Positions 8,396 through 24,629 of a DNA stretch of 64,000 bases are shown here, piece by piece (position 1 is the first letter of the stretch; every line of letters starts with the position of its first letter). The stretch is from the sequence record NC_110934.1; one strand, given 5' to 3'. Source of the stretch: Klebsiella phage KPP2018. The translations under genes were made by a program, and so were the position numbers. The notes under the pieces were generated by a model. The model saw only the letters and a list, made by a program, of their open reading frames with translations, made no database searches and was not told the origin of the DNA.

Positions 8396-8546
8396 TTTGA
8401 CTTTTGCCAAATTTCATAAGATTACACATGGAGGTGTGTCCAGTGGCCCCCCAGATGAGAATGAGTCTCATTACCGCCCGGTACTTAGCAAGCTAATAGT
8501 CACGGCATGTTATCATTGCACACCGTGACTATTTCAATTTTAATTA

Positions 8547-9323
8547 TTACGCAACTTTTAATTTCTCGATATATTGTTGCGGGCTGCAACTATATTCCGC
8601 GCGTTCTTCCTCGGTCATACTTTCCCAACATAATTTCAAACGATCAACTAGGAACTGATAATCATTATCATCATCGAGAGATTCATCAATAAAGGTTTCA
8701 CCTATCAATGCCACGCCGATTGATAGAATATCGTTAATAGCTTGCGCGTCCAGCGTTTTAAATCCGTATGATGCCGCCGCTGATAGCACGCCTTTATGAT
8801 CATCAATCATTGTGAAATCAGCGTTCGGATATAGCTGTTTAAATAATTCAAAATAATAACTTTTATATACTGCGTCCTTACTGTGGTATATTTCGCTAAC
8901 TTTATCAGCTTCAAAATATTTATGCAGCGTGTCACGGGAAAACACGCGGATATTACTATCCCCACGCCCTCGTAAGCCTTGTTTGCGCAAATAATAATAA
9001 TCCGACTTGCTCATTAGTCGAGCGGTACAAATAATGTTTAAAGTATTTGCATCATTCATACATTGGCGCATATATTCAACTAATGGTAATAAAGTATCTT
9101 GCATAATTAAATCATGCTTACACGCTTCATTTTTATATTTATTTAAATTTAAATTCCCGTCGCTATCAAAGCAAGGTGCTACACGATGGAACGAATTAAC
9201 GATAGTGCCATCCAGATCCCAAATCATGACGCGGGAAATATGCGGGAAATTACGGGTAATATTCGTTTTAACTTGATTCATTTTGTTACGTTCTCCATTA
9301 AAGGGATTTAGTTTATCCAGCAT
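8547..9323 (-). CDS. dmp: 5'-deoxyribonucleotidase (T5 Dmp-like, HAD superfamily), 258 aa
   Basis: HAD motif I in MIWDLDGTIVNS. Its size and pre-early context with an A1-like gene match T5. Confidence 0.7.
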   Translation of the reverse strand: MLDKLNPFNGERNKMNQVKTNITRNFPHISRVMIWDLDGTIVNSFHRVAPCFDSDGNLNLNKYKNEACKHDLIMQDTLLPLVEYMRQCMNDANTLNIICTARLMSKSDYYYLRKQGLRGRGDSNIRVFSRDTLHKYFEADKVSEIYHSKDAVYKSYYFELFKQLYPNADFTMIDDHKGVLSAAASYGFKTLDAQAINDILSIGVALIGETFIDESLDDDNDYQFLVDRLKLCWESMTEEERAEYSCSPQQYIEKLKVA

Positions 9324-9361
9324 TACCCGCTATTTATAAGCGGGTAATAATAAATCAACTA

Positions 9362-9754
9362 TTAAAGACCATAAGCCAACGCATCAGCGATGAAGCTAAT
9401 ATCTTCGCCGGATACATGAGAATGAACACCCGCGCAGATATATACCTTTGCGCTCGATAGCTGATCATCAAAGCAAGCTGGACAAGGCGCGACAACTGCA
9501 AAGGCTAGACCGGATTTTACGGCGTCGATGATAATCGTTTCCTGCTTCACCGTATCAACATAAACGCCTGCGGCCTTGATGTGACTACTTGCGCGGCCTT
9601 GCGTATAGGCGAAAGTAGTGATCTGTAGCGCCTCGTTAAACTCGATTAAATCATCAACAACGTGACCGGCCTCGACGTGGTAGCGTTCGCCATTAGAATA
9701 AACTAGAACAATGGAAGATTGAGCGCGATCGAATGGGATATTTTGCTTTTTCAT
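9362..9754 (-). CDS. Pre-early protein (A2-like by position only), 130 aa
   Basis: Lies between dmp and the A1-like gene and is flanked by GC-clamp hairpins. No motif recognised. Confidence 0.35.
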   Translation of the reverse strand: MKKQNIPFDRAQSSIVLVYSNGERYHVEAGHVVDDLIEFNEALQITTFAYTQGRASSHIKAAGVYVDTVKQETIIIDAVKSGLAFAVVAPCPACFDDQLSSAKVYICAGVHSHVSGEDISFIADALAYGL

Positions 9755-9819
9755 GTTTATAACTCCAATTAATTTAATAAGGGGTATAAGCGGGGTATAT
9801 ACCCCGCTTATAAATTTAA

Positions 9820-11484
9820 TTATGCGAAAAATTTGCCGTTTTTAAAGTCAATCAAAGTGCGCTGGCCGTTTGCATATGTAATTAAATGCGTTTGCGTCCA
9901 GCTTGACGCGCCAACGTTGTAGCCCATATCGAGGGAACCAGCGACGCCAGCGGTATAAACGCCGCCGTATATGCTGGCGGTGTGAGTGTGCCCCGTGTTT
10001 AACTTGCCCAATTTCTTAAATTGCTTCGGATTGCCACGGCTGCCGTTAATGCCGTTGTGACCGTGTACGCCGCACTCAATGCCTGCAATCTTGAAAGATT
10101 GGTCAGTGGTCAGGAATATGGCGTTAAACTCGCAACCTGCAACCGTACGCAGCGCATAATCTAGCACGTTGAAAGTATCGTCATGATCACCGATTGCCGC
10201 GTAAATTGCAGCATTCAGGCGGTGATATAGTTCCGCGTTGGCGGGGTCGTCTTTGATGTTAGCATTACGATCATCAAGCCAACGGGATAGCGCCAAATCG
10301 TGATTCGATTCGACAATGATCGTTTGACTAAAATCGCGCTCCATTGACTCCAGCACGCGCCCGGTATCGATGAGATCATCCAGAACTTTATCACGTCCGG
10401 CGGCATACTGTTTTGCTAGGAATACACCGGATGCACGGTTATGATGATTGCGCGATGTAAAATCGTGAACGTCATGGATAAACTGATATTTTGGTTTAAG
10501 AATATCAAGCAAGCTATTTTCGCCAGCCCATGACGCAGCGGCGCAATCATCATCCAATTTTTCCGCATGAATATCGCCATACTGCAAGCCTAAAACATGC
10601 CCCGACGTTTCAAAGCATCCGGCGGGGGTCGCGCAAATATTCAAATCGTAAAACATGCCGCTTTCATCCATCGTTTCAAGCTGGCGAACAAAAAATTCAC
10701 CGTCTTCGTCGAACTCGACAATAAGCGCACCGTAATTATGCAGCGCTTCGGCTTTTTGCCCTGCTTTTTGCTGAATGTAGTTTTTGAGTGTTGCCGTTCC
10801 GGTTGAATACATGCGGCGCACTACTTCACCTTTGAGAGCTGGGACACTTTCGGCGGTAATTTTAGCGTGACCAATTGCCAGACCTTCAATATTTAAAGCC
10901 GTTGCAGTTTCTGCGAATCCAGAAAGCGGATAATCTGCCGTTGGCAAAACATTAATTTCAGCCATGAAAGCAAAACGGCGATTATTTAAAAACACGTTTT
11001 TGCTGCAAATATATTTATCAAACGCGGAATCATATTTTACACCGTCAGCGCCTTCACCATTCTGGAAGCCGTTTTTATTATAAATATACTTAGAAACAAG
11101 CAAATCAGCGCCGATAAATTTAGCATATTGTTCAAGCGAGGCTAAAAAGTTTTTATGCGGGAAAGTATTATTCTGAATCGATGTAATAATAAAGCGTTTA
11201 CCTTGTTTGACTTCCCACTGTTCCACGGTACTAGAAACAATCCCAGCCGCTTCGGGGCGCTCGTCGTTTTTAATAGCTTTTACAGCTTTCGCCGTTTTTG
11301 GTTTCGCTGGTTTATTTGCTTCCAACCAATCGCAAATTGCTGTCGAGTGTTTTGCAGTATCGTAAACCGCTTTCGAAATATCGTCGCATACTTCCAGTTT
11401 AGTGGCGCGCAGACGTTTACCGTAGAAATTAAAGTCAGCGGCTAGTTTCATGATAGCGGTTTGTTTTTCTGCGGAAATAATCAT
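9820..11484 (-). CDS. A1: Pre-early protein A1-like (metallophosphatase domain), about 554 aa
   Basis: C-terminal calcineurin-like motifs GDHDD and GHNG/GHTH. Size matches T5 A1 (556 aa). Start reassigned to the ATG at 11484 (MIISAEKQ) because it has a GGAG RBS, unlike the track start at 11574. Confidence 0.6.
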   Translation of the reverse strand: MIISAEKQTAIMKLAADFNFYGKRLRATKLEVCDDISKAVYDTAKHSTAICDWLEANKPAKPKTAKAVKAIKNDERPEAAGIVSSTVEQWEVKQGKRFIITSIQNNTFPHKNFLASLEQYAKFIGADLLVSKYIYNKNGFQNGEGADGVKYDSAFDKYICSKNVFLNNRRFAFMAEINVLPTADYPLSGFAETATALNIEGLAIGHAKITAESVPALKGEVVRRMYSTGTATLKNYIQQKAGQKAEALHNYGALIVEFDEDGEFFVRQLETMDESGMFYDLNICATPAGCFETSGHVLGLQYGDIHAEKLDDDCAAASWAGENSLLDILKPKYQFIHDVHDFTSRNHHNRASGVFLAKQYAAGRDKVLDDLIDTGRVLESMERDFSQTIIVESNHDLALSRWLDDRNANIKDDPANAELYHRLNAAIYAAIGDHDDTFNVLDYALRTVAGCEFNAIFLTTDQSFKIAGIECGVHGHNGINGSRGNPKQFKKLGKLNTGHTHTASIYGGVYTAGVAGSLDMGYNVGASSWTQTHLITYANGQRTLIDFKNGKFFA

Positions 11485-11573
11485 AATAATAAACTCCATT
11501 AAAGGGATAAGGTTAATAACGGCAATATTGCCAAATATAACGCCTCGAATAATAGGCGTTATAATTTGCAACA

Positions 11574-11819
11574 TTAATTTAAAGGCATAAGGCTAGAACT
11601 AACACCACAAACAACGGCGGCAATAAAACAAATCAGACCTAAACGCTTCGCCAATCTAGATTTACGTTTAAAATAATACGAATCTAAATCATTTTGAAAA
11701 TATGCGAACAATAACGAGGCCGCCATAATAAATAGTCCTAGAATCAATGATTCAGTAGGGTAAAAGATCATTTTAAAAACTCCAGTTAAAGGGAAATTAT
11801 AGTGGGGAATAATCCCCAC
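11574..11819 (-). CDS. Small membrane protein (81 aa)
   Basis: Two predicted transmembrane helices. Confidence 0.45.
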   Translation of the reverse strand: MGIIPHYNFPLTGVFKMIFYPTESLILGLFIMAASLLFAYFQNDLDSYYFKRKSRLAKRLGLICFIAAVVCGVSSSLMPLN

Positions 11820-11828
11820 TATTTAAAT

Positions 11829-12062
11829 TTATTCACCTGCGGCCTGTTTTACTTCATCGGCAACGCCTAACAGCTGCGCCACGGCGTCCAGCGTTTCCAG
11901 TTTCGCGCTTTCAAGGCTTGCCAGATCATCAGCGTCTTTGATAATGCCGGAATCAATAGCGTGTTTTGCAATTACGCGCACATAGTGAGCTTTACGGATT
12001 GAGCTACCGCCGCCAACTTTGCGCGGCTTATCGCTCTTCTGATAGGCTTTTGCGCTGGTCAA
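11829..12062 (-). CDS. Hypothetical protein (77 aa, TTG start)
   Basis: Coupled to the upstream ORF (overlap at 12059-12062). Confidence 0.4.
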   Translation of the reverse strand: MTSAKAYQKSDKPRKVGGGSSIRKAHYVRVIAKHAIDSGIIKDADDLASLESAKLETLDAVAQLLGVADEVKQAAGE

Positions 12063-12235
12063 TTTTGAGCGAACGGATACGGGGAGGCCGCACCAACTGC
12101 TTTCGCAATCTCTTTTAAACCGTCGCTATTTGCAAAATCTAAACCGTTTTCATTGATTAACTGCTGGTACATGGTAACAGCTTTCTGGGTGTTTTCTTCA
12201 TTCCAGGTGAATTTTGCGGTTTTTGCGTTAGTCAT
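12059..12235 (-). CDS. Hypothetical protein (58 aa)
   Basis: ATG with upstream purine-rich RBS. Below the track length cut-off. Confidence 0.4.
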   Translation of the reverse strand: MTNAKTAKFTWNEENTQKAVTMYQQLINENGLDFANSDGLKEIAKAVGAASPYPFAQN

Positions 12236-12332
12236 GATATAAACTCCAATTAATTTAATTTAAGGGATTAGATTAACTAATGTTAATCGTTATATTCCCC
12301 ATATTTCAGGGGAATATAAAGTTAACACTAAT

Positions 12333-12584
12333 TTATAATACAGCTTCCCATTTTTCGTTGCGTTGAACAACCTTTACAACGTCGCCGGATTTAACGCGAA
12401 CGTTATAAATCGGCTTGCCGTTGTTACTGCGTTCTGTTTCAGCGTATACCGCATCGATTGTATCGAACGGCATAAGCGCCGCGCCTTTAATACGTTCGGC
12501 TTTTCCGGTTAACTCATCCGTTTTAGTAACGAAAGGAATAAAAACGGATTGACCAATTTTCGGCGCATTAGTAACGTTTTTCAT
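12333..12584 (-). CDS. Hypothetical protein (83 aa)
   Basis: ORF with RBS. Confidence 0.45.
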   Translation of the reverse strand: MKNVTNAPKIGQSVFIPFVTKTDELTGKAERIKGAALMPFDTIDAVYAETERSNNGKPIYNVRVKSGDVVKVVQRNEKWEAVL

Positions 12585-12813
12585 GGTATAAACTCCAGTT
12601 TATTCAGTGGATTGTTTCGCATTACCTGCTAAAAAGTATCAGGTAATAAGAAAAAATCCGCTCGCCATTATAAAATCAATTTAAAGAACTCCACGAAGGC
12701 CGCTATATCCCGTTAGGGGGCGGGGCACATTATGGTAAGTGCCGACCGTCAAATTGTATCAAGTTATCGCTCTTGTCGAACTGGGTACATCTTAAAGCCT
12801 ATCGGCTGGGGTG

Positions 12814-13014
12814 TCAAACAGTTTTTTGCGATTTTTTATAATTTTCCTTCAGGTCAATCATAATATTTCGCCAGACCATTTCCAGACCTTGCTGGCGGCC
12901 TTTCTTGTATTGCTTAAATCGGTATTTTACCGATCTTTGCGCTACTGTCAACAAATTTTTTGTTCTGCTGTCCAGTGCCTTGCTAGGTTTACCAGTGATT
13001 AAAAGCGTTTGCAT
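12814..13014 (-). CDS. Small basic protein (66 aa), putative DNA binder
   Basis: Lys/Arg/Gln-rich. Coupled by TAATG to the upstream 52-aa ORF. Lies inside an 18-bp inverted-repeat-flanked cassette. Confidence 0.45.
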   Translation of the reverse strand: MQTLLITGKPSKALDSRTKNLLTVAQRSVKYRFKQYKKGRQQGLEMVWRNIMIDLKENYKKSQKTV

Positions 13015-13172
13015 TATTTGAGATCCTCCAAAGCGTATAAACCTTTGCCATCATTGCAGATTATTACTGCTTCTGAATGATTGGCATAGTATTCGTTTGC
13101 ATTCTTTACCCATTGCTCGATCTTTTCGATCGTGTCGTGGGTAGCTGGATGATCGTTATATATTGTTGTCAT
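13014..13172 (-). CDS. Hypothetical protein (52 aa)
   Basis: ATG at 13172 with RBS. Upstream partner of the 66-aa gene. Confidence 0.4.
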   Translation of the reverse strand: MTTIYNDHPATHDTIEKIEQWVKNANEYYANHSEAVIICNDGKGLYALEDLK

Positions 13173-13273
13173 ATCGTCGATTCCTTATAATGTAATAAGT
13201 TTACCGCCGATAGGCTTTAAGATATACCCAATTTTTAAAGAGCGCGGCGGTAAACTTCCCGCCGTGTAGTTCG

Positions 13274-13459
13274 TCATTGCCGCCCTACGAGATAAATAAT
13301 AACAAACAACGAAAAAGGCGCAACCTTATTTTTGTAAAGAAATGTAAAGACAAACGCCACCGGACACCGTGCGGCGACCTGGGCGCAGCGCGTTAAAATT
13401 AAAAGAAACGGGCGCGCGAATACCACAAAACATAGCAGATAAGCAAGTAATTTTTTCAT
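13274..13459 (-). CDS. Small hydrophobic protein (61 aa)
   Basis: ORF only. Confidence 0.3.
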   Translation of the reverse strand: MKKLLAYLLCFVVFARPFLLILTRCAQVAARCPVAFVFTFLYKNKVAPFSLFVIIYLVGRQ

Positions 13460-13599
13460 TTATATTTGCTTTGCCCTACTTGACAAAATCTAAAAAGCTC
13501 ATGGCAGCGATAAACGGCTTATCCCCTTATGATGGGATGGCTAAAAACTTTATTGCGTTCTAGGGCGTTTTAGGCGCATTCTAGCCTTGTTGATAACTT

Positions 13600-14340
13600 A
13601 TCCCCAGAAGCAAAAATGAAATTTTCCTAGTTATCCACTTGACTTTTATTTTCCAGTGGATAACTACTTATTTTATAAAATAAATTAATTGACTTTTATT
13701 TGTTAGTATGCATCGGAAAGATAGCAGACTATTAATCACTAGGATGATGGTCATGCTGGTGGATTGTAACGGCCTGAATTATTAGCAGACTATTAATCAC
13801 AGAAAAACTCATTAGCCAACTAACTATTTCATGATATATAATATACTTATAAATTAATGAGAAATAATAACTATAAGAAATCATCACCAGTATAATAACA
13901 ACTATAAGAAATCATCACCACTATAATAATAACTATAAGAAACTATCGGCCTAAGTGAGAACCACTATCATTTAAGTTATCCACAACGTTATCCACAGCA
14001 CAAAATAATTTGACACGATAGGCGGCGATATGAGGGCTTTTACACAGATTTATCCACAGGTTATCCTACTGTATAAATATACAGGGTAAAAAGGCAGTGT
14101 TAACAACTGCAATCAATTTTAAGCGGCCTGAAACGCTTTCTAACGAGCTAAACGATGCGGGGCAATATTAAAGTAAAGACCCAACACGTCGCCCTGGTGG
14201 CTTCATCGTGTTTTGCTCTTTATTACACCGCTGCGCGGTTATCATAAAAATAGGCGTTAGGCAAGAAAAATAAAAAAGTAAAATAATCTTTGCCTATGCT
14301 AGAAAATTACCTTTATCATTCACTCACCGATTAACGAGGG
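13600..14340. repeat. Non-coding repeat and DnaA-box region, analogous to the T5 injection-stop / first-step-transfer boundary
   Basis: Three TTATCCACA DnaA boxes at 13987-13995, 13999-14007 and 14050-14058. A CTGT-N8-ACAG LexA-type palindrome at 14069-14084. Three copies of AACTATAAGAAATCATCACCA at about 31-bp period (13869-13950). Two copies of TAGCAGACTATTAATCAC. An inverted TTATCCACT...AGTGGATAA pair at 13631-13663. Confidence 0.6.
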
Positions 14341-14350
14341 AGGCCAACAA

Positions 14351-15328
14351 ATGCGGCTATATAAACCAGATAACGCAACCGTCTTAAAAGGTGCGCTGCG
14401 TAACCTGCTGGACGGTAGCAGAACAACCAGCATTAAGCACTTTGTTAACAAGGCCGAAGATATTCACCAAAATTTTTTTGATGATTTCGACGCCTATGAT
14501 ATGAGTAGTTTTTTGCAACTATATAAGCAAGGGGCAACCATTGTATTATATAATCGGGATAATCACCTGCTTACTAGTAGGGGTCCGGATACCGATTTCA
14601 TAATCGTAAAAGGTAGTATAGTAAAAGCCTATGATACTGGGGCGGGCTTAGAAGTTTTTTCAATAGAAAACTATGAAGCCAACCCCAATGATCTTTATGA
14701 TGTAGAAAATTTTCTCGATTCATTTTGGCGTTATTTATCAGTTGGCTGGAATCGGTCGGATTCTGATGGGTATCGTTTTGCGGCTGTAATGGCGTTTGAT
14801 GATGATGGCAATTTTTTGCTACCGTCGGAAATATACCCCTACGTATATGATGGGGATATAGAAAGCGCGGGCTTTTCTTTCTGGAAGGAGAAAGATCAGC
14901 CCATTGACAACACGGAAAAACATACTGTAAATTCTAGCACTCAAACTACTGAAAACAAAGGAAAAAATGCCATGACCAAGATCGCTAATATCGTTGCCGC
15001 CAATAAGTCTGCCGTTGTAAATGCTGCAAAATTGGAAGCGGGTAAAATTGCACTGACTCAAATTACGAAAGTAGTGGCTAAAAAAGCACCGTTCATGATC
15101 AAAGGCTATATTGATACGCCGATTGGTCGGGTAGTGATCGCTAACCTGCTAAGTGTAGCGGTTGACCAGTACGCCCCGAGTAACCAGAAAGCGAAAGCGG
15201 TAGCAAGCGCGGCAATGGAAGCGGCAATGTTAGAAATGGTGCAAAGTTTTAACATCGCTGAGATGATCGATGAAATGGTAAAAGGTATCGATATTTCTAC
15301 TTTTACCAATAACACCGAAAACGAGTAA
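14351..15328 (+). CDS. Hypothetical protein (325 aa)
   Basis: RBS GAGGGAGG. First gene of the plus-strand island. Confidence 0.6.
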   Translation: MRLYKPDNATVLKGALRNLLDGSRTTSIKHFVNKAEDIHQNFFDDFDAYDMSSFLQLYKQGATIVLYNRDNHLLTSRGPDTDFIIVKGSIVKAYDTGAGLEVFSIENYEANPNDLYDVENFLDSFWRYLSVGWNRSDSDGYRFAAVMAFDDDGNFLLPSEIYPYVYDGDIESAGFSFWKEKDQPIDNTEKHTVNSSTQTTENKGKNAMTKIANIVAANKSAVVNAAKLEAGKIALTQITKVVAKKAPFMIKGYIDTPIGRVVIANLLSVAVDQYAPSNQKAKAVASAAMEAAMLEMVQSFNIAEMIDEMVKGIDISTFTNNTENE

Positions 15329-15393
15329 TAATAACTAGCGGGGATTGTTACCCCGCTTTACTATTCCCTTGATAATTAATAGGAGGCTAATTA

Positions 15394-15888
15394 ATGGCTG
15401 AAGAAAAATATGGCTTCTCACTGGGAGAAGTGAGCACGGCAAAACATGATATGATCATTTTAGTCGATTGTCATACTGGCTATTGCGGGGAAGGGAATAC
15501 CGAGGAATATTTTGTTCCTGCGGGTACGGATCTGGACGCTCTCGCTCATGAAATGGCTATTGATAATGCTTCTCGTTTCGGTAGCGATGGCTATGAAGAC
15601 GAGGAAACTGGCGAATGGTATGAAAATGAAAACGTATATGCAAGCCTTTATCATTATCAATTAAGTAAATCCGGCACATATGTAAACGGCGGTGATCCTA
15701 TTAATTCCGTCATGAAATTAATTATTAAACACGGTGGCGTCGAGATAATTGATAACAAAGCGGTAATATATGCAAACCGATTAAAACAGCTTGTTTATAT
15801 CCCTGATAGTACCCGATGGGATGAATACGCCGTTTTGCATGACGAATTGAAACGATGTTTCAATGTTGAATCCTTACAAGTAGTTTAA
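15394..15888 (+). CDS. Hypothetical acidic protein (164 aa)
   Basis: RBS AGGAGG. Confidence 0.6.
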   Translation: MAEEKYGFSLGEVSTAKHDMIILVDCHTGYCGEGNTEEYFVPAGTDLDALAHEMAIDNASRFGSDGYEDEETGEWYENENVYASLYHYQLSKSGTYVNGGDPINSVMKLIIKHGGVEIIDNKAVIYANRLKQLVYIPDSTRWDEYAVLHDELKRCFNVESLQVV

Positions 15889-15994
15889 TGTAAAGTTTTG
15901 TAAAGGTCGCCTTTTATGGTGGCCTTTTTTGCTATAATGCCTTTACACCGTTTGAGGACGGTTGAAAATTTTCCCAAAAATTTGGAGGCTTAAA

Positions 15995-16225
15995 ATGGTT
16001 GCATATTCTTCTTCTGACGCTCTTTTCACTGGAAAAGGCTGGGTATCTAATCGCTGGATTATTCAAGAAATGGTGCAAGAATACGGCATTGCTAAAACTT
16101 ACACTACCATTCAGGCGCTTTATGATAATGATCAAATCGATCAGCAAACGGCGGGCTTTTTGCTGGACACGCTGAAAGCGGAACACTGCACTAAAAAGCA
16201 AGCGGCAAAAATTATTTTAATGTAA
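15995..16225 (+). CDS. Hypothetical protein (76 aa); its 3' third is inside the duplicated block
   Basis: RBS GGAGG before the ATG at 15995. Its C-terminal 31 codons recur as an orphan fragment at 45594-45699. Confidence 0.5.
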   Translation: MVAYSSSDALFTGKGWVSNRWIIQEMVQEYGIAKTYTTIQALYDNDQIDQQTAGFLLDTLKAEHCTKKQAAKIILM

Positions 16226-16274
16226 TTAATAAAGGGGCGAAAGTAACGCCCCACTAACTAGGGGAGTATTACAA

Positions 16275-16424
16275 ATGATTATTTTTCGAGCTATTCTGGC
16301 GGGTATCTTGGGCGCTATTTTATCTTTGTTTGCAATAGCTTTCGATGTTCACGCGGTTATTATCGGCGCGGGTATCGCTGCATTTTCTTATCTGCTGGGC
16401 TGCATGACTAGTAAAGGAGAATAA
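16275..16424 (+). CDS. Small membrane protein (49 aa)
   Basis: Two transmembrane segments with an RBS. Starts a translationally coupled chain. Confidence 0.45.
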   Translation: MIIFRAILAGILGAILSLFAIAFDVHAVIIGAGIAAFSYLLGCMTSKGE

Positions 16425-16426
16425 AA

Positions 16427-16639
16427 ATGATCCGCAACGTTTCTCTTGCACGTTCGAAAGGCTTTAAGCTGGTGGATGCTAACACGTTCGAGCGGGAAGA
16501 TTGTAAAATCGAATATGTAGCACGTAACAAAAATGCCTTTCGTGTTACTGAGAAAAAATTTGATAAGCGCGGCAACGTGATCGCTGAAACGGTTAAGCAC
16601 TTTGCCACCTTTTACGCTGCGTTTCGTGGGGTACTATGA
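16427..16639 (+). CDS. Hypothetical protein (70 aa)
   Basis: RBS AAGGAGA. Confidence 0.5.
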   Translation: MIRNVSLARSKGFKLVDANTFEREDCKIEYVARNKNAFRVTEKKFDKRGNVIAETVKHFATFYAAFRGVL

Positions 16640-16776
16640 AAAGCGTTATCGTTATTGCCCTTGCAATGGTTGGCGGTTTTACCGCCACCTTATTCAAAAA
16701 TGACCCCATTTCATTGGGGATCTTTATGTTATTATCTGGCTATCTAATTGGGAGGTTGTCAAATGGTTATTTATGA
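16636..16776 (+). CDS. Small membrane protein (46 aa)
   Basis: ATGA overlap with the previous ORF and one transmembrane helix. Confidence 0.4.
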   Translation: MKSVIVIALAMVGGFTATLFKNDPISLGIFMLLSGYLIGRLSNGYL

Positions 16777-17107
16777 GGGCAATCGTTTTGTTGCTAATTG
16801 CCGTCCTGCATTATTAGCAAACTACTTAAATCAGCTTTCCCCAGCTTATAAGGGTGTTATTAATATTTATGAGGGCAAGGCGCATTATAAAATCAATGCG
16901 GTCGTTGCCCGTGAACTAGCATTTCAATTTTTGACCTTTGCATCTTGTGATATTCAGGTCATGGGGGAAGCATTAATTGCAGAAAATGAAGATGATTTTA
17001 TTAATATTTTCCGCAAGATATGCACCGAGCGGCTGATAATGAAAGGCGCGTATATTCAATCCACGGCTGATAGTATTGAAACAGCGTTTCGAAAGGTGGC
17101 GCAATGA
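16763..17107 (+). CDS. Hypothetical protein (114 aa)
   Basis: RBS GGGAGG before the ATG at 16763. The track start at 16748 has no RBS. Confidence 0.55.
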   Translation: MVIYEGNRFVANCRPALLANYLNQLSPAYKGVINIYEGKAHYKINAVVARELAFQFLTFASCDIQVMGEALIAENEDDFINIFRKICTERLIMKGAYIQSTADSIETAFRKVAQ

Positions 17108-17262
17108 AAAAGTTTTTAATAGCTGGCATGTTTCCGTTGTTGCCTTATGTAATTTGCTGGGCTTTATACGCTCATGGCGCTAGTGTTCCCGCTGTGGCTT
17201 CATTTGGTGTATCGGCGGGCTTTCTAGCTGGACTATTAGCAAGCGTATACTTACGCAAATAA
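17104..17262 (+). CDS. Small membrane protein (52 aa)
   Basis: ATGA overlap with the previous ORF and two transmembrane segments. Confidence 0.4.
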   Translation: MKKFLIAGMFPLLPYVICWALYAHGASVPAVASFGVSAGFLAGLLASVYLRK

Positions 17263-17281
17263 TTAATAATGGGGCGTTATT

Positions 17282-17476
17282 ATGAGCAATAAAATTGTTG
17301 TAACCAAAATCAGTACAATGGTTGATGTTTTTTACGTGCCCGATACGCCGGAAAACCGACAAGCGGTCGAGCGTGGAGAATATGATAAAGTGATTTATGA
17401 TCACGATGGTTATTATCAGCATTTAGTGGATTCCTACGGGGAGGAGGAGAAGATCACGCATCGACTACCAGACTAA
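17282..17476 (+). CDS. Hypothetical protein (64 aa)
   Basis: ORF. Confidence 0.45.
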   Translation: MSNKIVVTKISTMVDVFYVPDTPENRQAVERGEYDKVIYDHDGYYQHLVDSYGEEEKITHRLPD

Positions 17477-17479
17477 TAA

Positions 17480-19140
17480 TCACGGGGCGCAACTATCAGG
17501 AAGTGCCCCCAATTCTCAAATGAGAATGATTCTCATTTGACCGCGCCCGCGATGGTTAGCCTGCTAATGGTTAGGGTGTTACGTGTCGCCTTGTGTGATC
17601 GTTAGCGTGCTAACTAATTTTCAAGCCTCCTTCAATTTTGCCCTTGTTTTAGTATCCCCAACAAAATTAAACGCGTTAGAATGCGTTTGAGAGCGTTTTA
17701 ACGCTATATTAGAATTATTCACTGCGTAGGAATACTGTATATTTATACAGTAGGATAAGCTGTGGATAAGTCTGTTGATAACGCTTCAAAACGGCTAGAA
17801 TTTTGTCAAGTCAAATCGTGCTGTTAGTAAGTCTGTGGATAACTTAAATAACAGTGTTTCTCACTTCCGTTCTTAAATGAGAATCATTATCATTTGCATT
17901 TCACTATCTAACTAATAATCATTCCGCTTTTTAAATGAGAATCATTCCGCTTTTTAAATGAGATTGATTCTCATTCCGCTTTTTAAATGCGAATTATTAT
18001 CATTCTCATTCCGCTTTTTAAATGAGAATGATTCTTATTATCATTCGTATTTAGCGCAGGGCAATTGCCCTGCGCTTTTGTGCAAATCCGACATTGCTCC
18101 ACGGGTGTTACGTGCGGGCGTGTATGTGCGAATCCGACAATCTTTGGTAGTGTGCAAATCCGACCCGAAAAATTTTTATAGTGTGCAAATCCGACAATGA
18201 ATTTTCCCAAAAACTCCAGCAATCTCGAACTGCGTTCGAATCCTGTGGGGTATGTGCAAATTCGACACGGTTTTTCTAGGATTAAGATGTGCAAATCCGA
18301 CAAGATTTTTGTGACTTCGATTGGAGGGTGTGTGATTGTGTGGGTTTGGGGAGAAGATGAGAGAGCGAGAGAAAATAAGGGAAGAAACTGGAGGAGCAGC
18401 ATGGGTGGCGTGTAACGCCTGATTTGCTGCGTTTTTGGGGAAGAGTTGAGAAGATTTGGGTTAATTGGGCTTGGGGCGAGATAAAGTAAAATTTTATTAG
18501 CAAAATGGGGCAAAATAGCTTGACAAGTGAAAATTCCTGTGGCTCAGGTGCTGCGTACTTTGATACATGGCAGTGGTTTAACCTTAGCAATAATGCTGCT
18601 ATTTTCAGGAGATTATATGTGCCTAAAAACTTAGGCATTTGTGCAAATCCGACCATAAATTTCTAGAAACACAATGTGCAAATCCGACAGTAATTTCTGG
18701 AAATGTGTTTTCAAAAAATGTCTCCTAGAAATAACCGCCCTCCCTATAACCGCCCTGTATTAAACCGCCTAGTATATGTTCCTAGAAACTTAGGAGAACC
18801 GCCCACTAGAAGCGTGATATCTCGTGGGTATTTCGTGAGAACTCTGGAGTTTCTAGGAAAGTGTATGTGATCCTAGAGATGGGGAGCGGCAACAGGTGTA
18901 TCATCTTGAACACAGATATTGCCTTTAAATATATTCGTATGTTTTAAAAGTAAATGATCCCCCATTTCATGTGAGATTCCTCGTGGGGCGCGTGAGTATT
19001 ACGGAAGAACTCTAATATTGGCCCGCGCTAAGACTAGCCGCTATAGCACAGACGCAAATAGAGTTGTAATAATCATCGCCCCTAGAGTTCACAATAAGAG
19101 TTATTGTTAATCTATGAGATTATTATAACATACATTTTTA
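17480..19140. repeat. Iteron-rich non-coding region (candidate replication origin or regulatory hub)
   Basis: Eight copies of TGTGCAAATCCGAC (six at 18078-18304, two at 18641-18690). A 22-bp perfect palindrome GCGCAGGGCAATTGCCCTGCGC at 18053-18074. Five copies of TTCCGCTTTTTAAATGAGAAT(C/G)ATT at 17860-18050. A 21-bp palindrome AAATGAGAATGATTCTCATTT at 17517-17537. DnaA boxes in minus orientation at 17760-17769 and 17835-17843. A LexA-type palindrome at 17735-17750. TCCTAGAAA and AACCGCC short repeats at 18660-18880. Confidence 0.8.
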
Positions 19141-19146
19141 ATAACG

Positions 19147-19902
19147 TCAAGAAGATTTTGCTAACGTTTTTGGATTCTTCCTGGCTTTGAGATATATCCC
19201 TTTAGATGCTAGGTAAATATATGTTGCTAGGAATGAAGATTCTGATCCCGATTCCTCATAGGTTAACGTACCTCTAGGGTATTTATTTGTTTTAGGAGCA
19301 TAGTTAAGCACAGCCGCAGTTAATGATCCTAATCCTAGAACATCCGCAAGACGTCTAAAGGTATTCTCTTCATCATGAATAGCATAAAGAATGTTATCTT
19401 CAATATCCGTTAATGGAATCTTACGGATATGAGATACTGCAATCCGTGCTATCATAGCTCCAATTGTTTTATTAATATCCTCGAAAGAAACACTCTCCAT
19501 ATATTTTAGAGGGGGAAGATGGTCATATTTACATTTCTTAGGCGGAATAAGAAGTTGTTCAGGGTAAGCCTCTAGTGCCTGACGAACGTTTGCTTCTGGA
19601 TATGTTGGCAAAGGTTCATCTATAATAACATGTAAAAAGTTAGCTCTATGCCCTTTAGCAGTTGGATCTAAAGACTTGAGTACTTTATTCATATCCACAT
19701 ATGAATATGCTAGGTCTGCTTGAGGAGCATTAATATCAAACTTAATCTTCTTGCCCTCCCATTTAGCAGGGAACATCTCACAAACAAACATTACTGCATG
19801 TTTGACGTCTGGCTCTAGCTCTGATAGACATTTGTGATCTGCTGTTACTGCTAAAGCGAGTATATTCTTAAATTTATTAGCTTCTTCAATCATATATCCC
19901 AT
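19147..19902 (-). CDS. Hypothetical protein (251 aa)
   Basis: ORF. An identical copy lies at 48611..49366. Confidence 0.6.
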   Translation of the reverse strand: MGYMIEEANKFKNILALAVTADHKCLSELEPDVKHAVMFVCEMFPAKWEGKKIKFDINAPQADLAYSYVDMNKVLKSLDPTAKGHRANFLHVIIDEPLPTYPEANVRQALEAYPEQLLIPPKKCKYDHLPPLKYMESVSFEDINKTIGAMIARIAVSHIRKIPLTDIEDNILYAIHDEENTFRRLADVLGLGSLTAAVLNYAPKTNKYPRGTLTYEESGSESSFLATYIYLASKGIYLKARKNPKTLAKSS

Positions 19903-20231
19903 GCCTGCTGACTAGTATCACTAACTTGTGTCTTTTTCTCTCTTCGTGGTTTAAAAGTTCCTGTAGTATTACTTTTACTAGGTTCTAATTTATACCACAG
20001 CATTCCTAGCTGGTTAACCATATGAGCAACATTTCTAGGGGTCAATGGAGGTAGGGATTCACAGTTTGATATCTCTATTAATATATTAAATAATTCTGTC
20101 TCTTTAGCCTTACTGTTTACTACCACCACGTATTCTAATGTCTCTACCTCAGAATCCTCGTCTTTATAGTAAAGGCTAAGAGTAATTAAATTTTCCCCAG
20201 CAGGAGTTATTTTTGTTTTACCAAATATCAT
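19890..20231 (-). CDS. Hypothetical protein (113 aa)
   Basis: ORF. Confidence 0.55.
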   Translation of the reverse strand: MIFGKTKITPAGENLITLSLYYKDEDSEVETLEYVVVVNSKAKETELFNILIEISNCESLPPLTPRNVAHMVNQLGMLWYKLEPSKSNTTGTFKPRREKKTQVSDTSQQAWDI

Positions 20232-20845
20232 TAATTACCTCTCTTATCTTCATTAAGCGCAGCTCCCAACGCCTCCATAATAGCATCTTCTAAACTTCCA
20301 TGTTTACTAGGATCATTAAAATGAATAGCATAAACAGAACTCCTAGAAACTCCAGCATCCGCAGGTGCTACGCTTCGCATATCAGATTCAAAAGCTTCTT
20401 GAGTATGCTTTAACTGTACAGAAGGGCCGTAATCTTCACCAAACTTGTATGACTGCGTACTACTTATCACACCCCCACAAGGAACATTGTGCATATCCGA
20501 CATTAATCTTTTATCGGAGTTATTCAGCATTGCGATTGGCCCTGACTGCCACGGATCTCGAATAGTTACTGGAGTACTGGGGCGGTTCACTTCAGCCTTC
20601 ACAAGTTTGTACCCTGCATCGATTAATGCGTTAATTAGATTATCAGCTGGGATGCGAGCCTTGCCAAAAATCTTACGAGCATCTTCGAGCTTATCCTCAA
20701 GATCTTTACATGCTCTAAGGTCAGTGTGTGCAAATGTTAGCTTCATAGATTTAAATTGTACAGTAGCAGTTAAATCTTTAAAGCTATAATCCCATGTGTT
20801 CAGTTCATGATCCGGTACTACTTGAATAGGTTGTTGTGCAAACAT
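20231..20845 (-). CDS. Hypothetical protein (204 aa)
   Basis: ORF. Confidence 0.6.
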   Translation of the reverse strand: MFAQQPIQVVPDHELNTWDYSFKDLTATVQFKSMKLTFAHTDLRACKDLEDKLEDARKIFGKARIPADNLINALIDAGYKLVKAEVNRPSTPVTIRDPWQSGPIAMLNNSDKRLMSDMHNVPCGGVISSTQSYKFGEDYGPSVQLKHTQEAFESDMRSVAPADAGVSRSSVYAIHFNDPSKHGSLEDAIMEALGAALNEDKRGN

Positions 20846-21030
20846 TATATATTCTCCAGTTTGTCTAACAGTTTATGAGCTGCGATGTTATATTGAAAGA
20901 GTTCATTATTGAGAATTTCATTCTCACAGGTTAACTCTAGATTCTTAGTATTGAGGCGACTGCAAATCAGTATCAGTCCCAGGATTATTAGGAGTGAGCC
21001 TCCTAGTAATACAAGAAGTAATGTTTCCAT
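20845..21030 (-). CDS. Small membrane protein (61 aa)
   Basis: Transmembrane helix. Confidence 0.45.
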   Translation of the reverse strand: METLLLVLLGGSLLIILGLILICSRLNTKNLELTCENEILNNELFQYNIAAHKLLDKLENI

Positions 21031-21263
21031 TATTTAATTCCCATGTAACGTTTGAGATATCCGATGAAGTCTTCCGCTGTATGCTCTACGCTACCTTGAG
21101 CTACGAATAGCTTGAGAGCTTCACGTTGTAGTTTGAGAGCAGCTAACTCACCCCGTAATTTTATCAGATCTTCTGCTAGTTCTCTAGCTCTACGCATAAT
21201 AACAAAAGATACAAGTACTACGATGAATAACATAACTACTAAAATAATTGCTATGATTTCCAT
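21030..21263 (-). CDS. Membrane-anchored coiled-coil protein (77 aa)
   Basis: N-terminal transmembrane helix and an amphipathic helix. Confidence 0.5.
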   Translation of the reverse strand: MEIIAIILVVMLFIVVLVSFVIMRRARELAEDLIKLRGELAALKLQREALKLFVAQGSVEHTAEDFIGYLKRYMGIK

Positions 21264-21541
21264 ATTAACATCCAGCTTTTATCACACATTTGGGCATGGT
21301 CTATCAGTTCATTCATTGATGTATTGTTATCATAAATGCACTCTAGTATATACCTTCTATCAAATTCGTCAACCAAATATTCTACGTTATTTATTACTAC
21401 TTTATACAGATCTGGGACTAGAGAGCATGTATTTGGTACGGGGCGACTGCTTAAGTCTATTTCGTTTTTACCCCATTCTGTTTTAAATAGTTTGTTACTA
21501 AGTGCTGCTAATGGGTTTGACCACACAATATAGCTACTCAC
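21251..21541 (-). CDS. Hypothetical protein (96 aa)
   Basis: ORF. Confidence 0.5.
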   Translation of the reverse strand: MSSYIVWSNPLAALSNKLFKTEWGKNEIDLSSRPVPNTCSLVPDLYKVVINNVEYLVDEFDRRYILECIYDNNTSMNELIDHAQMCDKSWMLIWKS

Positions 21542-21980
21542 TATTTATCTCCCTTCTTAACTTTGAAAACTTATTATACCAAACTATATGATTATCGTCA
21601 ATTACAAATTTATGATAACATGCTGGCACGGTATAAGTTCCATAATCCGTGACACGCTGCACAACCTTGTGTGCACACAGTCGACAACCATGCCCTTCTA
21701 AATGAGATCTAGCAGTTTGCCAGTAATACCCTTCATGATCTGGGCAATAGATCTCGACTTGCTGTTGCATTGTTTTATAATTTACACGCTCATACCCAAA
21801 GAAAGCTCCATGAACTGCAACAGCTTTCTTGATAAATATAAGGTTTAGTGCTTCTTGCTGAAAGTCGGGATGTAGCTGCTTAATCTTAGTTCTATTAATA
21901 GATCCATCCGATTTGATAAACCTATTTATTGGGAAGTTGTTAGCTTCCTCGATTAGTAATTCATTTACTTTTTCTCTCAT
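21534..21980 (-). CDS. Hypothetical Cys/His-rich protein (148 aa)
   Basis: Start moved to the ATG at 21980 (MREKVNELL) to remove a 100-nt overlap with the upstream gene. Contains several Cys/His motifs. Confidence 0.5.
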   Translation of the reverse strand: MREKVNELLIEEANNFPINRFIKSDGSINRTKIKQLHPDFQQEALNLIFIKKAVAVHGAFFGYERVNYKTMQQQVEIYCPDHEGYYWQTARSHLEGHGCRLCAHKVVQRVTDYGTYTVPACYHKFVIDDNHIVWYNKFSKLRREINSE

Positions 21981-21981
21981 A

Positions 21982-22206
21982 TTAGATATTCTCACACCTA
22001 AGGTAGAAACATTCGTAAGCATCACCAGTAAACTCTTTACCTTGTAGTATACATTTAGCCTGGTCTTCTGGTACTCCGGCATCTAATAATTGTTGTTTAC
22101 TTGGCTTTTCAGCGAATACCTTTACAAAATATTCACCATCCTGATTATACTCATTTATATCTCTAGTAAGGACATATACTTGCATTTGAAATTCCTTGAA
22201 ACACAA
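21982..22206 (-). CDS. Hypothetical protein (74 aa)
   Basis: ORF. Confidence 0.5.
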   Translation of the reverse strand: MCFKEFQMQVYVLTRDINEYNQDGEYFVKVFAEKPSKQQLLDAGVPEDQAKCILQGKEFTGDAYECFYLRCENI

Positions 22207-22239
22207 AAGGCCAGAACAATTAAGTCCTGGCCTCTAGAA

Positions 22240-22611
22240 TTAATGAAGTTGTTTACCACTTCTTAACATAGTGGCCGTTTCCATAAGATTTAACGTTGTA
22301 TCACGCTTTTTGATTTGTTTGTCGAGTTCATCGGTGCGTTTGCCAATGTAAGCGTTAATAGCCATATTCATAGCTGAGGCGAGATCTTCTTTGGTTATCT
22401 CTTCATCATCTAAGGCTAATTTAGCCAAAGAATCGAACGCAATAGAAAGTCCTATAAGATCTGAGGTTTCACTAGCTAAGATGGGATCAATATTATCTAT
22501 TGTTACTTCTAACATAGAGTTAACAATATCTTCTCCGTCTACTAGACCAGATTCAATATTACTCTCCCATTCCTTCATCTGCTCCAGCAATGGATTTTTC
22601 TTTTCTGTCAT
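22240..22611 (-). CDS. Hypothetical acidic protein (about 123 aa)
   Basis: Start chosen at 22611 (MTEKKNPL) because it has an AGGA RBS. The track start at 22677 overlaps the upstream gene. Confidence 0.45.
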   Translation of the reverse strand: MTEKKNPLLEQMKEWESNIESGLVDGEDIVNSMLEVTIDNIDPILASETSDLIGLSIAFDSLAKLALDDEEITKEDLASAMNMAINAYIGKRTDELDKQIKKRDTTLNLMETATMLRSGKQLH

Positions 22612-23020
22612 GGTAGAGATTTCCTGTGTCAGTTGGTAAGAAGGACGATTGAGCTTTAGGTGGATGTTGTTTAGCAATCCAGTTAAGAATCAGCACACGA
22701 CTAGGAACAATATCAGTGTTGTACCAGAAATCGTGAACCCATTGACGAGCATCCTCAAACTTACCAAATTTATATGCTTTCTTAAACAATTTAAACCCAA
22801 AACAATCTGGTGTAAAGTCTACTTCACGATACTGAACTACTTTAGAACCGGTTAGGTCTTGGATTGCTGCATTAATTTCTGTATGAGAGAATTTTGTTTC
22901 GTGAAACTTATTAAAGAATCGGTAGTTGAAGCGTCCGTTCGTTTCGACAAACAACTGGATAAAGAGATCGTTAAATTGATTATCAAACCAGTAATTCTGT
23001 AGTTGTTGTAGTGCTGTCAT
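22559..23020 (-). CDS. Hypothetical protein (153 aa)
   Basis: ORF. Confidence 0.55.
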   Translation of the reverse strand: MTALQQLQNYWFDNQFNDLFIQLFVETNGRFNYRFFNKFHETKFSHTEINAAIQDLTGSKVVQYREVDFTPDCFGFKLFKKAYKFGKFEDARQWVHDFWYNTDIVPSRVLILNWIAKQHPPKAQSSFLPTDTGNLYHDRKEKSIAGADEGMGE

Positions 23021-23217
23021 TTACGAACTCCGTTAATTGCCACGATGATGCCTTCGTACATAAAAGGAAGTAGTTCAGAAGTGTAGAAGATATTTTCCGT
23101 TATTCCTAGATGTCGAAAAAGTATATTAAATAATGCTGTTAGAAATACAATCTGAGGCAGTAATACAAAATACTCAGTTACAATCTTTGGTGCCTGATAA
23201 ACAAGACGTTTTATCAT
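23017..23217 (-). CDS. Small membrane protein (66 aa)
   Basis: ORF. Confidence 0.4.
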   Translation of the reverse strand: MIKRLVYQAPKIVTEYFVLLPQIVFLTALFNILFRHLGITENIFYTSELLPFMYEGIIVAINGVRK

Positions 23218-23316
23218 TGTTTTTAAGTCTCCTTATTACTTTGGCCTGCTCCACAATAATAAAAACTGCAAGCACTAATAGTGCTATTAGCCCCGCAGTA
23301 ATTGGTACTAAATCAA

Positions 23317-23643
23317 TCATGGGAGACGCCATACGTAATTAGCTGTCTGTAGGATCTTAGGTGTGTCATTATGATACATTACTACAGACTTTGGTGAATA
23401 ACTATCAGCTAGTTCTTTACGAATCATCTTACATTCTTCACCAGTATCGATATTTTTAACTATCACTTTCATATTAAGAGGTGTTAATACAGAAAGTGGT
23501 TTCCAAGAGTCCTCAATTTCAATTCCTACCTTTTTCTCGATTAACATGAGAACTTCTAGTGTATCATCTGGAATACTAATATTATTATTCACAAACTGTA
23601 ATATCTCATGTAAGGTATTTAATTCATTAAAATTAAGCTTCAT
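23317..23643 (-). CDS. Hypothetical protein (108 aa)
   Basis: ORF. Confidence 0.5.
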   Translation of the reverse strand: MKLNFNELNTLHEILQFVNNNISIPDDTLEVLMLIEKKVGIEIEDSWKPLSVLTPLNMKVIVKNIDTGEECKMIRKELADSYSPKSVVMYHNDTPKILQTANYVWRLP

Positions 23644-23878
23644 CTTTAAGAATATCCTCTACCATATCACAAGACTGTTGCAATTCATCAGCAATACGTT
23701 TAATATCGGTTTTTGTTACTTTACCAACTAACATCACCAGTAACATAGAAAAGATAATAAGTGGAACTGGAATAACAAATAAAGCTACTTTAGCTACATT
23801 CTTTGGTGCCCATGTGTGGTATTTAGTAACCAGTACACCAACCACAATTAGATAAAACGCTAGAATAAACATCATCAT
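23633..23878 (-). CDS. Membrane protein (81 aa)
   Basis: Two transmembrane segments. Confidence 0.5.
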   Translation of the reverse strand: MMMFILAFYLIVVGVLVTKYHTWAPKNVAKVALFVIPVPLIIFSMLLVMLVGKVTKTDIKRIADELQQSCDMVEDILKDEA

Positions 23879-24156
23879 TTTTTAATCTCCGTAATTATCT
23901 GTGCGCGCATTACTTTATTAGGTAATTTTGTATTCCCAGCTATTGCTTCAATATTGTTTAGTTTTTCTTTTAGAATATCTGAGCGTCTTTGTGCTAGTTC
24001 AATATCTTGTTCTTGTTCTATTAAGCGGCAGTGAAGTCCACTATTAGTAGTAAGCATACTCTCCATATTTTTTCGCATGCTTACAATACCAATAATCCCA
24101 CCAATCGCTGCTAGTGTCATAAGAACTAGTAGTCCAATGAGAATTTCAGTTAACAT
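23875..24156 (-). CDS. Membrane-anchored coiled-coil protein (93 aa)
   Basis: Transmembrane helix and a heptad region. Confidence 0.5.
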   Translation of the reverse strand: MLTEILIGLLVLMTLAAIGGIIGIVSMRKNMESMLTTNSGLHCRLIEQEQDIELAQRRSDILKEKLNNIEAIAGNTKLPNKVMRAQIITEIKK

Positions 24157-24316
24157 TAAATACTCCTACATTTTTCGTTATCTGGGACTAATTTACACAT
24201 TTCTACTTTCAGTTCTTTTGCTGAGTTTTCTAGTTTAGAAACTTTATTGTGAATAAGTCCCAAAAATATCGCTTGGAAAACTACCATTATTGCTACTAAT
24301 GCTAGTTTATTCTCCA

Positions 24317-24586
24317 TTATTTCTTACCTTTCAGTTGCTTAACTTCACGCTCAAAAGATGCTGCACGACGTTCAGCAGTTGCCTGGTGCTCTTTCGCAAA
24401 ACGAGCTTCCTGTTTTGCGAGGTTGAATGCCATAGCATTCTTATTCAGAGAATCATACATCTTTTTCATTGCCGGAATAGACATCTTCATGAGCTGACCC
24501 TCAAAACCCTGCATGTCGAGGAGAATTGCCAGAACGTTAGCCATTTCGTTTTTAGTCATGTTTTCCATTAGAATTTCCTCTCTCAT
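24317..24586 (-). CDS. Hypothetical coiled-coil protein (89 aa)
   Basis: Consensus promoter cassette immediately upstream. Confidence 0.55.
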   Translation of the reverse strand: MREEILMENMTKNEMANVLAILLDMQGFEGQLMKMSIPAMKKMYDSLNKNAMAFNLAKQEARFAKEHQATAERRAASFEREVKQLKGKK

Positions 24587-24600
24587 TAATTTATGAACTT

Positions 24601-24629
24601 ATTATACAGAATTTTAAGGCTTAAAGCAA
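24601..24629 (-). promoter_or_regulatory. T5-early-type sigma70 promoter (TTGCTT-17-TATAAT) with a conserved leader and RBS
   Basis: Reverse complement reads TTGCTT, a 17-nt spacer, TATAAT, then ATAAATTAATGAGAGAGG ATG. Confidence 0.7.

Follow-up and report, generated by a model that had tools for sequence, protein, structure and literature searches.

Why does a phage chromosome carry two facing copies of a composite of predicted DnaA and LexA sites, one on either side of a small group of genes? The question is posed by a 64,000-nucleotide stretch of Klebsiella phage KPP2018 (NC_110934.1; "the window" hereafter means this whole stretch). Specifically, the 35 nucleotides at 14050–14084 (TTATCCACAGGTTATCCTACTGTATAAATATACAG) are, bar one G/C difference, the reverse complement of those at 17735–17769. 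The pair is the orthologue of the published IRC/IRD inverted repeats of phage T5, and it resides in terminal-repeat DNA of the kind that enters the cell first, the first-step-transfer (FST) DNA. The element is already known, and our additions to it are modest: a LexA-operator reading of the inner end of each repeat arm and a lineage-specific inversion of the enclosed operon. Our interpretation, to which we assign a probability of roughly 55%, is that the arms may constitute a landing pad for host proteins, DnaA and probably LexA, that is tied to the pause in phage DNA injection.

The inverted arms and their T5 orthologues

What is the element? The window belongs to a T5-like phage (Demerecviridae). 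Megablast aligns it with hundreds of T5-like phages at 89–94% identity, and collinearity with phages chee24 and T5 places the equivalent of the terminal repeat at ~8531–18340. Homologues of dmp, A1, and A2 lie to the left of the left arm on the minus strand, and the promoter of gene 011 and the GTGCAAATCCGAC repeats occupy the same places as in T5. The initial annotation overlooked both the T5-like phage and the published IRC/IRD repeats, the right arm of which lies within an annotated feature, iss. For this window itself, the finding is an ordinary one, the orthologue of a published element. A plasmid or replicon origin was also considered and dropped; megablast of 13000–19000 against plasmids returned no match.

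The inverted 35-nt repeat is borne out at both of its coordinates. The two 35-nt cores are the best-matching part, at the inner ends, of longer inverted arms of 147 nt each. The left and right arms are 74–77% identical to one another, and their longest perfect match is 24 nt. Their parts, together with the repeats that follow the right arm, are these:

13953–14099, plus strand: left arm, A1-proximal; orthologue of T5 IRC-spacer-IRD (Repeat Region 2), defined by inverted-repeat and arm alignment
13977–13997, plus strand: left outer DnaA pair; TTATCCACA twice (13977–13985 and 13989–13997) with a 3-bp gap
14038–14058, plus strand: left inner DnaA pair; TTTTACACA (14038–14046) and TTATCCACA (14050–14058) with a 3-bp gap
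14067–14086, no strand assigned: left LexA-type operator, predicted by sequence match; TACTGTATAAATATACAGGG, 17/20 identical to the LexA consensus
17720–17866, minus strand: right arm, A1-distal; orthologue of T5 IRD'-spacer-IRC' (Repeat Region 3), within the equivalent of the T5-annotated iss
17733–17752, no strand assigned: right LexA-type operator, predicted by sequence match; TACTGTATATTTATACAGTA, 19/20 identical to the consensus
17761–17781, minus strand: right inner DnaA pair; TTATCCACA (17761–17769) and the variant TTATCAACA (17773–17781) with a 3-bp gap
17822–17842, minus strand: right outer DnaA pair; the variant TTACTAACA (17822–17830) and TTATCCACA (17834–17842) with a 3-bp gap
17872–18688, plus strand: rest of the iss-type repeat region past the right arm; its units are also found in T5 at 9552–9709 and 9753–10490

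The composite of DnaA box and LexA-type palindrome described in the initial annotation is real, paired, and inverted, but each arm possesses four DnaA-type boxes rather than one. Six of the eight boxes in the window's arms match the consensus and two are variants. Beyond the right arm, AATGAGAATCATT palindromic units occupy 17876–18039, and the GTGCAAATCCGAC repeats number eight in the window (18080–18301 and 18641–18688) versus nine in T5.

Chance does not explain this arrangement. By our own arithmetic, an inverted 35-mer with at most one mismatch is expected in 64 kb with a probability of ~2e-10. The motif CTGT-N8-ACAG occurs five times in the window versus 0.58 expected; three of the five are the arm palindrome, one of these three within a duplicated segment that we describe below. 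Likewise, the two arms, 294 nt in all, contain 6 of the window's 13 consensus DnaA boxes when ~0.04 would be expected (Poisson P ~4e-12, also our own arithmetic). Given these values, neither the pairing of the arms nor the clustering of boxes in them is attributable to chance. With respect to structured RNA, an Rfam scan of 13000–19000 yielded nothing near any gathering score.

The published T5 element provides the comparison. Davison, following Heusterspreute 1987 and Wang 2005, describes in T5 a 131-bp IRC-spacer-IRD at 6022–6152 and its inverted partner, IRD'-spacer-IRC', at 9332–9462, and reports that the arms are kept in 25 T5-like phages (bioRxiv 10.1101/866236). The T5 arms harbor a 52-bp spacer and, "always in pairs separated by 3 bp," boxes of the DnaA or DnaA* type, eight in total (10.1101/866236). 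The window's left arm is 83% identical to T5 NC_005859 6098–6234 and 92% identical to chee24 5697–5843. The T5 right arm, at 9411–9542 of NC_005859, falls inside the RefSeq iss misc_feature (9140–10149), and the window's right arm is found in 546 phage records, usually at two places per record. Agreement with T5 IRC/IRD extends to all five of the sequence features that we compared: place, homologous arms, paired boxes, spacing, and the iss arrays beyond. Spacing is compared here as the distance from pair to pair, since Davison's exact IRC/IRD boundaries were not reproduced; on this measure, the two DnaA pairs of each arm are 61 bp apart in the window and T5 alike.

Thus far, the window's pair of arms resembles the system studied by Heusterspreute 1987, Wang 2005, and Davison 2015 and 2020 in its place in the terminal repeat, its flanking genes, and its repeats. 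The window's arms share 74–93% identity with those of T5 and chee24 and have the same eight boxes, paired at 3 bp, with 61 bp between pairs, and in T5, as here, the arms bracket a block of oppositely transcribed open reading frames (ORFs). The differences are in detail: the window has six consensus and two variant boxes, its block includes a gene for a 164-amino acid (aa) protein, and the centres of its palindromes read AA/TT rather than the AA/AA of T5.

The LexA-type palindrome

Which component of the arm is held most constant? We aligned 56 distinct arms, read from the outer to the inner end, from 23 E. coli/Salmonella-type contigs, 3 Klebsiella-type genomes, Pectobacterium phage My1, and one Vibrio phage, and we scored conservation as the mean frequency of the majority base:

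16-mer palindrome: 0.958
TTATCC preceding the palindrome: 0.955
four DnaA boxes: 0.84–0.95 (outer 0.94 and 0.87; inner 0.84 and 0.95)
spacer: 0.72
inner flank: 0.65

In this sample of phages of E. coli, Salmonella, Klebsiella, Pectobacterium, and Vibrio, conservation of the palindrome matches that of the best DnaA box. Even where A1 has diverged to ~31% identity, as in Vibrio phages, the distal module still consists of the palindrome CTGTATATTTATACAG followed by the DnaA pair GTGGATAAggtTGTGGATAA. Individual arms are 80–93% identical to the orthologous arm elsewhere versus 73–77% identical to the partner in the same genome. Because orthologues are closer than same-genome partners, the likeness between partners is kept by selection and not by homogenisation.

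We note that the proximal copy in Vibrio T5-like phages differs from the intact distal module: it has a decayed half-site (ACAT), and a DnaA pair lies ~220 bp off, on the other side. The loci are 5915–6216 and 9002–9097 in Wyman and 4588–5071 and 8026–8123 in ValDsh2. Given the decay of this copy, the pairing of arms is loosest in the most distant relatives.

What might bind the palindrome? We scored resemblance to a LexA site as identity to the published consensus TACTG(TA)5CAGTA (PMC6015884). In addition to the 19/20 (right) and 17/20 (left) matches, both palindromes display CTG-N10-CAG with an AT-rich centre. Moreover, the 18-mer TACTGTATAWWTATACAG occurs as at least 120 exact stretches in IMG/VR, mostly in contigs of 30–60 kb. 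In non-T5 viral contigs, it lies 12–23 nt upstream of ORFs and, among the matches listed, those ORFs include 10 UmuD-like, 4 DinI, and 20 anti-repressor-like products. Genes for umuD-like products, dinI, and anti-repressors are textbook examples of SOS-controlled genes, and the known hosts are all Gammaproteobacteria, which have a common LexA motif. The arm palindrome is, by prediction, an operator-quality site for host LexA, the SOS regulator. The arms share with the SOS operators of temperate phages (umuD-like, dinI, and tum-type anti-repressor) this identical 18-mer, but those operators sit immediately upstream of a start codon, whereas in T5-like phages, which are virulent, no ORF lies closer than 260 nt to the palindrome.

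Alternatively, the ligand of the palindrome could be a phage protein, either dimeric A2 or an A1–A2 complex that restarts transfer, in which case the likeness of the site to an SOS box would be coincidental. In the literature, A2 binds DNA as a dimer and second-step transfer depends on it, the palindrome is situated where transfer halts and has to resume, and the centre of the palindrome is never the AT of the LexA consensus, all of which suit this idea. The 16-mer, however, is nearly unchanged in Vibrio phages while A2 and A1 fall to 30–40% identity, and in unrelated phages SOS genes typically have this 18-mer as their operator. A static 16-mer alongside diverged A1 and A2 fits a host factor of fixed specificity better than a co-evolving phage protein, and we regard binding by a phage protein as unlikely. 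The invariance of the palindrome, against a background of diverging phage proteins, points to a host factor.

The two central bases of the palindrome (14076–14077 and 17742–17743) follow a pattern of their own. They are AA in 44 of the 56 arms, TT in 11, and GT in one, and never AT or TA. Read on the plus strand, the centres are AA/AA in T5, TT/TT in chee24, and AA/TT in the window; they are uncoupled from the orientation of the arms. This pattern is not the product of inversion between the arms. It looks like the outcome of repeated flipping of the centre or of selection against a perfect palindrome.

Does LexA, then, control transcription here? The idea would be that LexA at the palindromes represses overlapping promoters, such that pre-early transcription out of or into the arms answers phage-caused damage. 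The operator is near consensus and elsewhere sits directly upstream of SOS genes, and the window does offer candidate promoters: a minus-strand TTAACA-16-TATATT (14103–14076) places its -10 element inside the left palindrome, and a plus-strand promoter-like site at 17687–17715 would start transcription just before the right palindrome. Neither site, however, is conserved in the inner flanks of T5, and promoter-like sites are modestly enriched across this AT-rich region (26 versus 15.8 expected). The experimentally characterised pre-early promoters are elsewhere: the one upstream of 011, ~200 bp from the palindrome, and PH22 and PD/E20. Neither palindrome has an ORF start within 260 nt, the nearest lying 266 nt away, so the palindromes do not have the location of a LexA operator at a regulated promoter. 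We judge SOS-responsive control improbable. A LexA-repressed promoter lying over the palindrome was likewise tried as a candidate and set aside, the window's candidates not being conserved in T5.

A different precedent for LexA and DnaA sites in close quarters comes from the E. coli uvrB promoter and DARS1, where LexA and DnaA boxes interleave or overlap and mutually influence binding (PMC6015884). The arms resemble this arrangement: in the left arm, TTATCC begins 2 bp after the inner DnaA pair, abuts the palindrome, and runs into the TACTG of the operator. Given this junction, DnaA and LexA may compete or cooperate at the arms as they do at uvrB/DARS1. The uvrB/DARS1 sites differ in that they overlap promoters and regulate a gene, whereas the window's sites form an inverted pair 3.6 kb apart with no conserved promoter.

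A full-text search, the reach of which did not include Heusterspreute 1987, Wang 2005, or Davison 2015, turned up no paper that connects LexA, an SOS box, or a Fur box with Tequintavirus or Demerecviridae, and Davison 2020 makes no mention of LexA, SOS, or Fur. The conservation of the palindrome, its LexA match, and the operon inversion are absent from the searchable literature; the likeness to an SOS box may have been noted in the older papers.

Proposed role at the injection stop

What could the arms do for the phage? How T5 DNA transfer is halted after the first 8% of the genome has been a question since the 1960s, and the sole current sequence-based idea is DnaA binding at the repeats. Specifically, Davison proposes membrane-associated DnaA as the ligand of both arms and counts both among the components of the injection stop signal (10.1101/866236). 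Later papers restate this proposal as a hypothesis. In Davison's account, the T5 FST shear point is at ~9618 and the right arm at 9332–9462, and a second FST band, credited there to Rhoades, maps near the left arm (10.1101/866236).

Our reading builds on this model. Each arm would be an array of host-protein sites, with four DnaA boxes capped at the inner end by a LexA operator. Host DnaA would occupy the arms as they enter the cell, and LexA presumably would too. The right arm would arrive a few hundred base pairs before the pause and could help to assemble the protein–DNA complex by which the incoming molecule is retained at the injection stop, as in Davison's DnaA model but with LexA added. 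The left arm would be a dispensable second copy or accessory, perhaps a second anchor or a loop partner. That it is accessory is suggested by a viable deletion of hegG to 017, by phages that lack the left arm, and by the second FST band near it. Finally, the arms, by virtue of being inverted repeats, may on rare occasions have served as recombination substrates. As the best-conserved element of the arms, the LexA operator would furnish a second host factor that is easily tested, given that lexA and dnaA mutants and T5 engineering exist.

Several points weigh against this reading. The DnaA and LexA sites are predicted from sequence. The LexA operator is overlapped by no conserved promoter, neither candidate (14103–14076 or 17687–17715) being conserved in T5; thus, it would not be a classical SOS operator. 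T5 tolerates a deletion that runs from hegG to 017, the mutant forming small plaques. We infer that this deletion removes the left arm, in which case the pair is not essential. The left arm is also missing from Davison's "Type 4" phages (10.1101/866236). The initial annotation had held that relatives with the genes and without the modules would speak against its proposal; with respect to one module, the left arm, such phages exist in the form of the Type 4 group and the hegG–017 deletion. Finally, the breakpoints of the operon inversion are not traced to the arms, because the inner flanks have diverged too far and are in part self-similar.

T5 plates on recA strains, which also bears on the part LexA could play. 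Because T5 grows on such hosts, LexA cleavage is not required for infection. An SOS-triggered restart as an essential step in transfer was considered as a candidate and is unlikely for the same reason.

Alternatively, DnaA and LexA at the arms might act as a roadblock or insulator that stops RNA polymerase, shielding the DNA held at the entry site from transcription of the operon. The right arm is suitably positioned, just downstream of the operon end and a hairpin at ~17473–17500, and the T5 right arm follows an annotated terminator (9275–9296). Complexes at DnaA boxes are said, from the work of Schaefer and Messer on asnC, to block transcription, which also favors this possibility. The left arm, however, lies between divergent promoters, where there is no transcript to stop, and we hold a roadblock to be an unlikely account of the pair.

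Among the repeats next to the right arm are the AATGAGAATCATT(C/A)TCATT palindromic units, ~six of them just past the arm and one more at 17519 (17519–18039 overall). These units resemble, at 12 of 13 positions, the core of the Fur box, AATGATAATCATT. Should this likeness hold, three host regulators (DnaA, LexA, and Fur) would have sites in the injection-stop region.

A more elaborate version of our proposal can be entertained. In it, a working LexA site and the DnaA pairs, perhaps with the Fur-like palindromes, would together make up the landing pad; occupancy, or the loss of LexA after host DNA breakdown, would tune the pause, the restart, or the pre-early program; and the arms would have mediated the operon inversion. 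We offer this full version as speculation that is doubtful as a whole.

The enclosed operon and its surroundings

What lies between the arms, and does its orientation matter? As the initial annotation indicated, the modules bracket plus-strand genes, with minus-strand genes on both sides. The principal features are these:

14258–14325, plus strand: operon promoter from a promoter scan, with -35 TTGCCT (14290–14295), -10 TATCAT (14314–14319), and an A-rich upstream stretch
14351–17476, plus strand: rightward pre-early operon of nine ORFs, defined by the ORF list, PHROG and Pfam matches, and T5 and chee24 homologues
47193–47339, minus strand: second copy of the right arm, from the window's 29.5-kb duplication

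The nine products are 325, 164, 87, 49, 70, 46, 119, 52, and 64 aa in length. The 325-aa DUF7566 protein is the homologue of T5.011, the 70-aa product is T5.014-like, and the 49-, 46-, and 52-aa products are hydrophobic. The block is homologous to T5 genes 011–017, and the 164-aa gene is present here and not in T5. The 325-aa gene is preceded by 130 bp with ~95% identity to the annotated T5 promoter upstream of gene 011, which is reported to be experimentally characterised. Given this homology and this match, the block is a pre-early operon with its own promoter.

The order A1 (minus), arm, 325-aa gene (plus), 164-aa gene (plus), arm exists in the window, T5, chee24, and 23/23 E. coli/Salmonella-type contigs. 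By contrast, the operon is inverted with respect to A1 in Klebsiella phage vB_Kpn13-P1 (PP848836), two IMG/VR Klebsiella-type contigs, and Pectobacterium phage My1. In these genomes, homologues of the 325- and 164-aa genes are on the strand of A1, in reversed order, and still between the arms; some also possess a homologue of the 64-aa or the 119-aa gene. Protein alignment confirms the homology of the inverted-block genes. Because Vibrio phage Wyman has the divergent layout of T5, the inverted state looks derived. A comparison of synteny in relatives, suggested in the initial annotation, reveals arms that are kept and an operon that is flipped in the Klebsiella and Pectobacterium lineages. Apparently, the orientation of the operon relative to the direction of entry is not critical, while the arms themselves are maintained. 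Comparison of the inner and outer flanks of the window with those of Kpn13-P1 or My1 gave one result in keeping with a swap (70.9% versus 62.7%); the others were non-discriminating.

Inverted repeats on either side of a block that occurs in both orientations suggest a programmed invertible segment, and a cluster of DnaA boxes recalls oriC and so might mark a replication origin. We consider either function very improbable. A 600-nt query for the left junction of the inverted isomer, in which 13785–14084 meets the reverse complement of 17435–17734, matched 0/438 deposited records at a coverage of at least 80% (coverage peaked at 72%, a value due to the native right arm), while the native left junction was covered to at least 80% in 146/446 records. 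Orientation is fixed within each clade: among deposited genomes, we found no close relatives in which both orientations coexist, and all 23 E. coli/Salmonella-type contigs have the same one. No recombinase family is present among the nine block proteins in PHROG and Pfam, one being DUF7566 and the rest belonging to PHROGs of unknown or host-takeover function. The arms are 74–77% identical, with no perfect match longer than 24 nt, they have not been homogenised, and their palindrome centres differ between phages and so cannot set directionality. For these reasons, the arms are not a programmed inversion switch. The proposal in the initial annotation that the modules are recombination sites is upheld in part: the block has been inverted in three Klebsiella-type genomes and My1, but a working switch is unsupported, with no inverted junction in the 438 genomes. 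Regarding an origin, the arms show nothing of a DnaA-dependent origin beyond the box cluster. The literature places T5 origins mid-genome, and at the FST stage the replication genes have yet to enter (10.1101/866236), which leaves the suggested origin-associated element unsupported. Nothing indicates a mobile module, which had also been put forward.

The resemblance to the Hin, Gin, and Cin segments is instructive. In those systems, too, inverted sites flank a block that occurs in both orientations, and the asymmetric 2-bp AA/TT centre superficially recalls the hix crossover sites. The window's block differs in that it has no invertase gene, no isomers in 438 genomes, and centres that are not consistently inverted.

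The window has peculiarities that concern its assembly. An 18.4-kb direct repeat (16120–34536 = 45594–64000; 99.85% identical, period 29,474 bp) reaches the end of the window, and its second copy begins midway through the 87-aa ORF of the operon block. The copies differ solely by a 1-bp indel at 16261 and by a replaced patch of ~43 bp (18546–18588), which in copy 2 carries a GGGCCTTCGGCCC hairpin. Another 29 kb would hardly fit into a T5 head, so the 29.5-kb tandem-like duplication is probably an assembly chimera or artefact. Additionally, the essential A2 gene (11829–12235, minus strand) is split into ORFs of 58 and 77 aa by the deletion of 1 bp that T5 and chee24 retain (GGCTTCTCCCG to GGCCTC-CCCG), reflecting either a sequencing error or a defective genome. 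The duplication and the A2 deletion suggest an imperfect assembly. The arms agree with those of hundreds of genomes, and the conclusions about them are therefore independent of the assembly.

Repeats also occur on the left side of the left arm. Three tandem copies of a 31-nt unit (AATAATAACTATAAGAAATCATCACCAGTAT) occupy 13863–13955, and further DnaA-like boxes form head-to-head pairs at 13588–13606 and 13631–13663 (within 13578–13666). The repeats at 13863–13955 and the boxes at 13578–13666 correspond to T5 Repeat Region 1/2 material.

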